From the NCBI RefSeq assembly GCF_013122565.1, contig NZ_CP053258.1: DNA of 64,000 nucleotides. One strand, given 5' to 3'. Origin of the DNA: Escherichia coli (GTDB lineage Bacteria; Pseudomonadota; Gammaproteobacteria; Enterobacterales; Enterobacteriaceae). Position 1 is the first letter of the stretch, and each line of letters starts with the position of its first letter. This document shows positions 11,761 through 14,700 of this stretch, one piece after another. The position numbers were made by a program.

Positions 11761-14700
11761 TGATGGGCGGTATTCTGAAACGGCGATTGTCGTGAGAACA
11801 GAATGGTTGCACCAGAATACAGATATAAAAAAACCGACATGACAGTCGGTTTTTTTATTTTTTCCGCCCAAGACTTGGTGGTTCTGGGCAGAAATGAAAC
11901 AGTCCTCATCTAGCAAGTGAATTATAAGTCAGGATGCCTACATATTCAAACAGCTATGTTGGCGATACAATCCCGACGCTAGTAGTGATACTGCCTCAAG
12001 GGATTACCGCAGTGCGGAAAAGTACTTTTAAGTCCTGGTCAGGATACAGGTGGTGCTGATTCTGGTGCTCTAATTTGGAGAGAGGCAGTCCTCATCTAGC
12101 ACATGAAGAAAATCATAGTTACAGGCAATGTAAGGGTAAGCTGTGATTGTCTTTCTCCCTTAAGGGAGCAACGGATGAAAACTTTTCTCGATAAAGTTCT
12201 CATCGTTCTTAAGGCGCTAATCGCGCTGCTGGAACTGATCCGTCAGTTTATTGAATAACTGAGGAAACGTAGCTAAGGCCGAAGGTTTACCACCTTCGGC
12301 CTTTAAAAAACCGACATGACAGTTGGTTTCATATTTATTGCCAAAATGCACACTGTTCATGCCAGATGCGGCGTAAACGCCTTATCTGGCCTACACAATC
12401 TTGCAAAATCAATATATTGCACGATCTTCGTAGACCAGATAAGCGTAGCGCATCAGGCAATCTAACGCCTGTCATCACCCCGCAAACTGCCTGAACAGCG
12501 CCTTACCCTTAACCAGTCGCGCACCCAGCCAGCCGCCGCAAAGCGACAGCAGCAGCGCTCCGCTGCACGGCAGAACAATCCACAATCGCCAGTCTGGCTC
12601 CCACGGGAAATCAAACACTTTCGCCTGCAACACTGCCAGCGCCGTTTCCGCACCAATTGCGGCCACCAGGCCAGAAACAAACCCAAGCATGGCGAACTCA
12701 CACCACAATGTCGTGCGCAGCAGCTTTTTCCCCGCACCGAGTGTGCGCCACACCACCAGCTCCTGATGACGCTGACGCATTCCCACCTGCACCTGTGCCA
12801 GCAACAGCAACATACCGCAGGCGGTGACCAGCACCACCATCACCTCCAGCGCCCGACTTACCTGCTCCAGCACCTGACCGACCTGTTTTAAAATCGCGCC
12901 AATGTCTAACAGGCTAATGGTCGGGAACTGGCGGTTGAGTTGCGTCAACATGCCGTTGCCATTCTCCCAGCGGAAACTGGTAAGCCAGCTCTGCGGTTGC
13001 CCGTCTAATGCCCCTTCAGGGAAAATAAAATAGAAATTAGGCCGCAGACTTTCCCAGTCCACTTTGCGCAGGCTGGTCACTTTAGCGCGGAACTCCTGGG
13101 TATCGCCCATAAAAGTCACGGTATCACCGAGGGCAACGTTTAAGCGTTTCGCCAGCCCCTCTTCCATCGACACTTCATCGGCTTTTGGCGGCCAGTTACC
13201 GGCGACAATCGGATTATGATCGGGCCGCGTATTTTGCCAGGTAAGATTGAGTTCGCGGTTAAGCGCCTCATCTTCATTACCTTCTGTCGGCTTATCGTTA
13301 ATCGCCGTCAGCCGCGCCCGCACCACCGGATAAAACGATTCCGGGACTATCTGATGTTCCGCGAGGAACGCTTTTAGCGGTGCTACCTGTTCTGTGGCGA
13401 TGTTAATTAAAAAGTAGTTCGGGCTTTCTGGAGGTAGCTGCTGCTGCCAGCGGTCGAGCAGATCGCCACGCAACACCAGCAGCAGTGCCAGCAGCATAAA
13501 GGAGAGCGAAAATGCCGAAAGCTGGCTTAACGTTGACCACGGCTGACGTAACAGGCGGCTAACCGCCAGGCGCAGAGGCAGCGATTTCAGCGTCATGCGG
13601 CGAAGTACATTCAGCAGCATCCAGCCCAGCACACCGCACAGCAAAGCCAGTACTACCGCGCCCGCCAGCACCGCCCAAAGCAGCATGCTGCCACCCATTA
13701 ATCCGGCGAGCAGCAGCACAACCACCACACTGACAATCGGCAGATAAAACTTCAGCGGCCAGACGTTCGCTACCACATCATTACGCAATACGCGTAAAGG
13801 CTGCGTTGCCAGCAACAAGCGGTACGGTCGTAGCCCCACCAGCAGCGAGATGACTGTCATGGTGCCCAGCGCCCATAGCCACGGCCAGAGGCTGGCAGGC
13901 GGTAGTGCAGCAGGTAGAACGGGCTTGAGCAGCACCATCAACACGTTTTCGAATAACAGGCCTATCGCCCCACCGGTAACGGCTGAAAGCGACAGCACCA
14001 TCAACCACTGACCGACGATTAGCTTACGCAGCTGCACTCGCCCAGCCCCCAGCGTTTTGAGGATCGCCACCAGATCGTAGCGACTGCGACAGTAATGATT
14101 CATCGCCACCGCCACCGCTGCCACTGCCAGCAGCAAGGTTAGAAGCGCAGAAAGCAGCAGGAACTGTTGCGAGCGTTCCATCGATCGCCCCAGCGCGCCT
14201 TCATCCTGTTCCAGACCATACCAGCGTTGTTCGGGTTTAAGCTGAGGTAACAACCATTTCTCATAGCCGTCGAGCTGGTTCTCGTTGCCGCCGAATTTAT
14301 AGCGCCAGGTGACCCGACTCCCCGGCTGCACGGCTCCGGTTTTATCGACATCCGCCAGATTCATCATCAGACGCGGAGCCATCTGGAAGGGGTTAAAACC
14401 GGAATCCGGTTCCTGAATCACTTCTCCGGCAATCCGCAAGGTGGCATCGCCCACGTCAATGGTGTCGCCCGTTTTCAGGTTAAGCAGTGCCATCAGGCGT
14501 GGGGCCAGCAATACGCTGCCCGTCTGTGGTTTCAGGCCGGGGGGATTGGTTTGCAGATCGCCATACATCGGGTAGATATCATCCACCGCTTTGACATTCG
14601 CCAGCTGCGGTGTGTCGCCTGCAAATGTCATGGTGGCGAAAGTCAGCTGCTTGCCGACTTTCAGGCCGCGCTTTTGCGCTTCCTCCAGCCACGCTTGCGG

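Follow-up and report, generated by a model that had tools for sequence, protein, structure and literature searches.

A candidate DinQ/AgrB-family type I toxin–antitoxin module with a duplicated antitoxin terminator between selU and ybbP in Escherichia coli

Two predicted small genes in the selU–ybbP gap

The convergent genes selU (mnmH) and ybbP lie 711 bp apart (11764-12474) in the stretch of Escherichia coli DNA analyzed here, 64,000 nucleotides (nt) of contig NZ_CP053258.1 (assembly GCF_013122565.1) that we call the window and whose own numbering is used throughout. The upstream neighbor selU (10669-11763, plus strand) is a 364-aa open reading frame (ORF) that RefSeq calls mnmH at the homologous locus; ybbP (12475-14889, minus strand) was placed by ORF calling and by the RefSeq annotation there. 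The ORF ends, at 11763 and 12475, confirm the spacing given in an earlier note on this DNA. That note had also proposed a toxin candidate between two near-identical repeats in the gap, and this was borne out by a DinQ-like gene. We put at roughly 85% the probability that a chromosomal type I toxin–antitoxin module of the DinQ/AgrB (dql) family occupies the gap and works as proposed below. The homology of both genes and their pairing were computed or compared; expression, toxicity and antitoxin action are what we infer.

The putative toxin gene (12175-12258, plus strand) encodes a 27-aa peptide, MKTFLDKVLIVLKALIALLELIRQFIE. It matches NCBIfam NF041472 (toxin_DinQ) at 40.9 bits, above the cutoff of 30, and falls below the cutoff of the DqlB family (24.5 bits vs. 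35), so that NCBIfam places it with DinQ and not with DqlB. The peptide core is identical to that of K-12 DinQ at 15/19 positions and has a mean hydropathy of 2.7. The toxin mRNA has a 3′ hairpin of its own (12275-12303, plus strand, -20.7 kcal/mol), which alignments show to be a homolog of the terminator hairpin of dinQ/dql. K-12 agrA-dinQ can be aligned with the segment over its full length, starting about 15 nt outside the Agr terminator and reaching the terminator hairpin of dinQ. The longest ORF of the selU–ybbP interval has 51 aa. A 51-aa ORF from 12103 is the toxin frame read with an N-terminal extension, and RefSeq takes the 27-aa form. A 41-aa ORF (11934-12059) was rejected as spurious, as it matches no NCBIfam family and overlaps the promoter/untranslated region (UTR).

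The second gene, on the minus strand at 11825-11914, would encode an AgrB-like antitoxin small RNA (sRNA) of about 89 nt. It matches Rfam RF02891 (AgrB) at 11825-11913 over its full length at 56.5 bits (gathering score 40), and the match also stands above gathering in an Rfam scan of the whole window. The sRNA folds at -34.7 kcal/mol (z = -6.1) and agrees with the AgrB family consensus structure, which has four compensatory pairs (covariation). A promoter scan found a sigma-70-like promoter, TTGAAT-17-TATAAT, at 11921-11949 on the same strand. From the promoter spacing and the start of the Rfam alignment, transcription of the sRNA would begin near 11913-11914. The sRNA gene lies upstream of the toxin ORF on the opposite strand, about 260 bp away and without overlap. 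In other strains RefSeq annotates the peptide at this site as dinQ and gives no RNA gene.

The 5′ UTR of the toxin mRNA may hold a translational switch like that described for dinQ. An anti-Shine-Dalgarno (anti-SD) sequence, TCTTTCTCCC (12150-12159), and the Shine-Dalgarno (SD) sequence AAGGGAG (12162-12168) form a small palindromic hairpin in the predicted folds (12150-12168, plus strand). The region aligns with CTCCAT..ATGGAG of K-12 dinQ, just upstream of the start codon, and we read the hairpin as the dinQ SD stem-loop (PMC5066626). Further upstream is the predicted sRNA target (12060-12101, core 12086-12101, plus strand), which holds GGAGAGAGG (12077-12085). In the predicted folds the anti-SD pairs either with the SD or alternatively with GGAGAGAGG.

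Because the antisense box of the sRNA (11900-11921, minus strand) is, as DNA, a direct repeat of 12086-12107 (20/22 identical, 16 contiguous), the sRNA 5′ end is predicted to be antisense to the toxin 5′ UTR. Duplex energies were calculated for the first 32 nt of the sRNA against the toxin mRNA. The window sRNA and the window toxin (12060-12101) gave -46.7 kcal/mol, as compared with -22.8 ± 3.1 kcal/mol (minimum -34.7) for 1476 control segments. The K-12 pairs gave -57.4 kcal/mol for agrB with dinQ and -41.9 kcal/mol for agrA with dinQ, the latter pair being reported as non-protective (PMC3567139, PMC5066626). Cross pairs between the window locus and K-12 dinQ/agrB were weaker (-27 to -35 kcal/mol).

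Under the proposed mechanism, a minus-strand sRNA would run from 11914 to 11825 and stop at a terminator palindrome, and the plus-strand mRNA would encode a hydrophobic membrane peptide of 27 residues. Through its 5′ end the sRNA would pair with the toxin 5′ UTR around 12060-12101. This pairing would free the anti-SD, which would close the ribosome-binding site, and would invite cleavage by RNase III, as for AgrB/dinQ; closure and cleavage together would keep the toxin silent. In dinQ, alternative 5′ UTR structures switch the SD, a mechanism that the predicted folds match here (PMC5066626). Antitoxin action by base pairing has been demonstrated experimentally for DqlB/agrB of pOXA-48 (PMC12365149). 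The over-produced peptide is toxic and the sRNA neutralizes it in the cases of DinQ (PMC3567139) and pOXA-48 DqlB (PMC12365149).

The module appears to differ from dinQ in its regulation. We found no CTG-N10-CAG in 11764-12474 and no site within one mismatch of CTGT-N8-ACAG in the interval, i.e., no LexA box, and the K-12 dinQ LexA box aligns to a window stretch with a 7-nt gap. The toxin is thus probably not SOS-induced. For the same reason the RefSeq name given by the Prokaryotic Genome Annotation Pipeline, "damage-inducible type I toxin DinQ", is probably misleading for this paralog, since it is without the LexA box of the true dinQ (window 11980-12000 vs. the K-12 promoter).

Beyond the module, the gap ends in a pair of repetitive extragenic palindromic (REP) sequences, a bacterial interspersed mosaic element (BIME), at 12347-12470. 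The earlier note had placed a REP pair after the second repeat, and it is seen there at about 12355-12443. REPs are also present in empty-site alleles, which have no module, and their copy number differs among strains. Across strains (D7, AR13438, E. albertii) the REP/BIME array beside ybbP ranges from a partial REP to four REPs, and this variation is the source of most length differences among otherwise identical alleles. The Rfam scan of the whole window also returned sroB (82 bits) and a full naRNA4/REP-derived element (81 bits), at 57216-57299 and 62976-63053. These are ordinary E. coli features and bear no relation to the module.

A duplicated terminator and the alleles of the site

The repeats, the alleles of the site and their frequencies were compared directly. 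Repeat copy 1, AAAAAACCGACATGACAGTCGGTTT (11828-11852), and copy 2, AAAAAACCGACATGACAGTTGGTTT (12305-12329), are identical at 24/25 positions, and their likeness runs to 38 nt at 82% identity. They are the only two copies in the 64-kb window at up to three mismatches, where shuffled sequences predict 0.00. The near-identical repeats of the earlier note thus hold up, with slightly loose coordinates for copy 1 (11827-11857), whose palindrome spans 11825-11858.

Copy 1 is a perfect palindrome with a 14-bp stem. Its hairpin is worth about -16 to -17 kcal/mol on either strand, and intrinsic-terminator scoring passes it on both strands, so it would be a bidirectional intrinsic terminator of selU (plus strand) and of the Agr-like sRNA (minus strand). 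Copy 1 is also the terminator portion of the Rfam AgrB match; by this homology it is the terminator of the AgrB-like sRNA, held in common with selU. A match of Rfam OrzO-P to this terminator was weak and sub-threshold (24 bits vs. a gathering score of 60). To the left of copy 1 is the module's left flank (11778-11824), of which the last ~14 nt, CAGAATACAGATAT, resemble conserved sequence beside the Agr terminators of K-12 and of plasmid loci.

Copy 2 (12305-12342, core 12305-12329, plus strand) appears to be a weakened duplicate of the sRNA terminator and passes the terminator scoring on the plus strand only. It carries the variant GTTGG, whose changed base gives a G.U pair in plus-strand RNA and an A.C mismatch in minus-strand RNA. 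It starts two bases past the toxin mRNA's own hairpin. In three metagenome contigs of divergent Escherichia copy 2 reads CCGGC...GTCGG, as against GTTGG in E. coli, and both changes keep the plus-strand G.U and give the minus-strand A.C. Retention of the G.U pair hints weakly that the toxin mRNA makes use of copy 2, as chance would produce it about one time in four. We infer that copy 2 now probably gives the toxin mRNA a second 3′ hairpin or a back-up terminator.

As it is present in both E. coli and divergent Escherichia lineages, the terminator duplication is, by its distribution, old. The module with both copies is found in Escherichia sp. E1V33 and in contigs whose selU 3′ end is about 92% identical to that of the window. 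The module core is 97-99% identical across lineages in which the flanking selU is 92-96% identical, and the toxin ORF of the divergent lineages differs from that of the window at synonymous sites only. In a synteny scan of 80 species, the module or a single terminator was found only in Escherichia loci; Citrobacter and other loci in that scan had no match to the terminator or peptide patterns.

Alleles were counted in 5426 complete E. coli genomes, of which 1314 hold 80% or more of the 711 bp and 1317 hold selU, module and ybbP contiguously, which makes carriers about 24% of E. coli. The K-12-type ybbP-rhsD junction is present in 2869. An empty site, as in CFT073 and E. albertii, accounts for roughly one genome in ten (6 of 60 rows taken at even spacing) and reads TGATGGGGGATTCTG joined directly to TGCAC..., followed by REPs. 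In alignments with CFT073 and E. albertii, the segment missing from the empty site is 569 bp long (11778-12346), with ATTCTG on its left and TGCAC on its right, and comprises the whole toxin–antitoxin module and both repeats.

A further allele has a single terminator. It was found in E. coli AR_0077 and in a divergent Escherichia genome that is the representative of a species listed as "E. coli". It joins the left flank of copy 1 to the right flank of copy 2 and is shorter by exactly one repeat-to-repeat unit (477/478 bp). Counting it with a synthetic 110-nt query for the junction was unworkable, as BLAST joined both halves in module carriers; within E. coli, AR_0077 alone is confirmed, and the copy-2 match listing suggests at most about four. 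We read this allele as the product of repeat-to-repeat deletion, since it has an Agr-type stem and a family-conserved flank and since copy 2 is GTCGG in the divergent lineages. The two copies would recombine occasionally, with loss of the 477/478-bp unit, and leave a single hybrid terminator. The earlier note had taken the repeats for a recombination scar or the ends of a small mobile module. The hybrid single terminators favor a part of this, namely that the repeats act as deletion substrates; neither a scar of the rhs element nor a mobile module was supported.

Decay is also seen inside the module. About 190 module-bearing E. coli have lost 108 bp (12087-12194, plus strand) between AGTCCTCATC and AGTTCTCATC, which are imperfect 10-nt repeats. 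The deletion takes out the sRNA target, the SD, the start codon and the first toxin codons, and the full module core is found in 1124 genomes vs. about 1315 carriers. In two metagenome contigs the same deletion brings the repeats to a spacing of 370, as against 478. The RefSeq label dinQ persists on some of the deleted loci. One human gut metagenome contig (locus extract 1755-2184, about 2x coverage) has a repeat spacing of 407 bp. Its toxin ORF runs at ...GGAACTGA directly into the A-run of copy 2, and the C-terminus of the peptide and the hairpin are lost. Given the coverage, this variant may be an assembly artifact.

The module, the empty REP-only site and the rhsD element would be alternatives at a single intergenic site, and exchange among them would go through the flanking genes and not via the repeats. 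The rhsD, module and empty alleles share ATT(C)TG, about 13 bp beyond the stop of selU, and all diverge right behind it (K-12 locus extract 12100-12133 vs. window 11764-11777). On the ybbP side of the rhs allele the break falls exactly at the ybbP stop codon, hence that allele is without REPs. In Escherichia whittamii the site has a fifth occupant (locus extract 1090-4650), about 3.5 kb long, whose three ORFs of 222, 241, and 666 aa lie on the minus strand.

The weight of evidence and the origin of the second terminator

Several observations weigh against the module as we read it. The perfect match between sRNA and mRNA is 16 nt (19 contiguous with G.U pairs), below that of K-12 agrB/dinQ, and the duplex of -46.7 kcal/mol is close to the -41.9 kcal/mol of the non-protective agrA/dinQ pair. 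No sigma-70 promoter for the toxin passed in the promoter scan. About 14% of carriers have the toxin-killing deletion, which suggests that selection on the toxin is weak. As for the deletion origin of the single-terminator alleles, these have a C where full-length E. coli copy-2 matches have a T. Every full-length E. coli copy-2 match differs from the GTCGG query (at most 98.5% identity), and the copies that were read are GTTGG. The C would require a simple crossover within the last 5 nt of the repeat, or later mismatch repair.

As to how the second terminator arose, copy 2 could be the remnant of a tandem unit or a short templated duplication into the toxin 3′ flank. The former is possible, though we hold it well short of even odds: a second sRNA-toxin unit would once have stood in tandem, as agrA and agrB do in K-12, and would mostly have been deleted since. 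In K-12, agrB and agrA make up a 231-bp tandem repeat, in which a piece of the dinQ 5′ region seems to be included, and the likeness between the window copies extends about 13 nt past the hairpin into the sRNA body. The right flank of copy 2, CATATTTATTGCC, however, resembles the 3′ flank of the dinQ/dql hairpin in K-12 and IncX loci about as well as it does the sRNA body, so copy 2 could instead be a short insertion into the toxin 3′ flank. Alignment of this flank with the dinQ/dql 3′ flanks is too weak to decide the origin of copy 2. Nor was any genome seen with two full units; where a genome has matches in two places, one is the canonical dinQ.

In the arsR-gor region of K-12 (locus extract 2048-2392), the agrB/agrA unit appears to include a dinQ-5′-like piece (AAGCCTTGT vs. 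AAGTCCTGGTC). As judged from sequence, the agrB/agrA duplication shows a tendency of the family to partial tandem duplication.

An unrelated agr-dql module in Enterobacter is bracketed by a different terminator-like hairpin, AAAAAACGCCGCATTAYGCGGCGTTT (38 nt, 87% identical between copies). The pair is at 170-207 and 995-1032 of the locus extract from E. ludwigii NZ_CP116349.1, and at about 1675-1710 and 2465-2495 of that from E. hormaechei pKM98_p3. Its right copy again follows the toxin hairpin closely on the 3′ side and matches the glnS terminator native to Enterobacter. This pair may be due to chance, may be left over from an att-like site or may belong to a recurring pattern.

An opposite history, which we consider unlikely, would make the single terminator ancestral, as a bidirectional terminator shared by selU and ybbP, into which the 477-bp sRNA-toxin unit was inserted later with duplication of the hairpin. 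The insertion would have been a Campbell-type integration of a small circle or would have left a long target-site duplication, and the repeats would be the insertion junctions, as the earlier note suggested. Single-terminator alleles do occur in two lineages, and they read GTCGG where every sampled E. coli copy 2 reads GTTGG, which fits a kept ancestral copy. Intramolecular recombination that loses the unit would release such a circle, and the Enterobacter replicons offer a second, unrelated terminator duplicated around an agr-dql module. On the other hand, the single terminator has the 12-nt stem of the K-12 Agr terminators, and its left flank has the CAGA(Y)(R)T that is conserved in the family beside them; both are expected of a module remnant and not of an independent selU terminator. 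The C of the single allele in the divergent lineage fits deletion as well, because copy 2 is GTCGG there. E. albertii and phylogroup B2 strains share an identical junction that has no terminator at all. Finally, the interval has no recombinase, and the unit occurs at one site only in the 5426 genomes and not on plasmids or phages.

It is more doubtful still that the duplicated terminator makes the 477-bp unit a recombinase-free cassette, which would leave as a circle by recombination between the hairpins and re-enter at similar terminators. If it were true, terminator duplication would be a general signature of how tiny type I toxin–antitoxin loci move; the Enterobacter pair is a second case, with a different terminator.

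The evidence for an autonomous mobile module is lacking, and we regard that claim as unsupported. No recombinase lies in the interval, and no near-identical copy was found at any other E. coli site, the module having a single site in the 5426 genomes. BLAST of the REP-free module against plasmids returned family homologs at 67-70% identity and three full-length matches; among the matches listed is a 1.2-Mb record filed as a plasmid. BLAST against phages gave no module match. The repeats were also rejected as a target-site duplication or att site, as there is no copy at the empty sites of CFT073 and E. albertii and both copies are within the 569-bp difference.

The earlier note had tied the repeats to the absence of rhsD. 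The gene is indeed absent from the gap, and the K-12 map, with the RhsD genes between selU and ybbP, is as the note gave it (ybbP-rhsD-ybbC-ylbH-ybbD-ylbI-ylbG-selU). Both K-12 junctions were read and searched, and the rhs element is flanked there by no copy of the repeat, no REP and no small ORF; K-12 and the window cease to be homologous about 13 bp beyond the stop of selU and, on the other side, at the stop codon of ybbP. The counts of 1314 and 1317 genomes agree, which leaves no room for an rhs element inside or beside the module. Comparison of rhsD-positive and rhsD-negative genomes therefore shows the repeats to be unrelated to rhs, both copies being absent from K-12 and from the empty site. 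We give next to no credence to the repeats as a scar of the rhsD polymorphism or as its boundaries, with rhs inserting between them or excising through them. In favor of this reading are the positional coincidence of rhsD at this intergenic site in K-12 and one breakpoint in common just after selU, at ATT(C)TG, and against it are the K-12-type junction in 2869 genomes, the lack of any repeat, REP or toxin ORF beside the element in K-12, the absence of rhs at the site in module carriers, and the homology to Agr terminators, which accounts for the repeats.

Relation to known systems and significance

The closest described system is dinQ-agrA/agrB of K-12, between arsR and gor (Weel-Sneve 2013, PMC3567139; Kristiansen 2016, PMC5066626). 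The gene order and orientation are alike, with the sRNA upstream, opposite and non-overlapping. The sRNA fold and terminator stem (AAAAAAACCGAC...GTCGGTTTTTT) are homologous to those of the window, and in both loci the toxin 5′ UTR repeats the 5′ end of the sRNA, an anti-SD hairpin closes the SD (by prediction in the window), the toxin is a 27-aa peptide with an ALIALLELIR core, and the toxin gene ends in a 3′ hairpin with a short U tract. The window module differs in that it occupies another chromosomal site, in about 24% of E. coli only, has one sRNA gene where K-12 has two, and is without the LexA box. Its antisense match is shorter (16 perfect nt vs. about 30), its sRNA terminator is duplicated downstream of the toxin, and nucleotide identity to the K-12 locus is about 70%.

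The dinQ-like genes dqlA and dqlB occur on chromosomes and plasmids of Enterobacteriaceae (PMC5066626), and DqlB/agrB of pOXA-48 is a validated addiction module (PMC12365149). The dql loci of IncX and other plasmids are built likewise: an Rfam AgrB match precedes the toxin by 150-250 bp, the 5′ end of the sRNA recurs as a direct repeat in the toxin UTR, and there is a GGCC..GGCCTTTAA hairpin. Identity of the window module to these plasmid loci is only 67-70%, and the IncX loci examined are without the second terminator copy that the window has. In zorO/orzO, tisB/istR, and shoB/ohsC, which are likewise non-overlapping type I systems with tandem or partial duplications, a divergent sRNA also base-pairs with the long, structured 5′ UTR of its toxin, and copy number differs among E. 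coli strains (PMC11264685, PMC8594479). The likeness that we claim to these is one of architecture, apart from the weak, sub-threshold OrzO-P match.

The module is thus an ordinary member of the known DinQ/AgrB (dql) family (PMC5066626), with a toxin already named in RefSeq and a modest local twist. We did not find descriptions of the antitoxin sRNA at this site, the absent SOS control, or the duplicated terminator with its single-terminator scar. The known workings of type I systems are unchanged by the locus. What it does change is the reading of the site: the apparent "rhs scar" would be a second, non-SOS locus of the DinQ toxin–antitoxin family, carried by about a quarter of sequenced E. 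coli. The selU–ybbP site has at least four alternative states, i.e., empty, single terminator, toxin–antitoxin module and rhsD element. With its repeat-to-repeat losses and its 108-bp toxin-killing deletion, the locus offers a natural series of decay products that would be useful for studies of how chromosomal type I systems are kept or lost.

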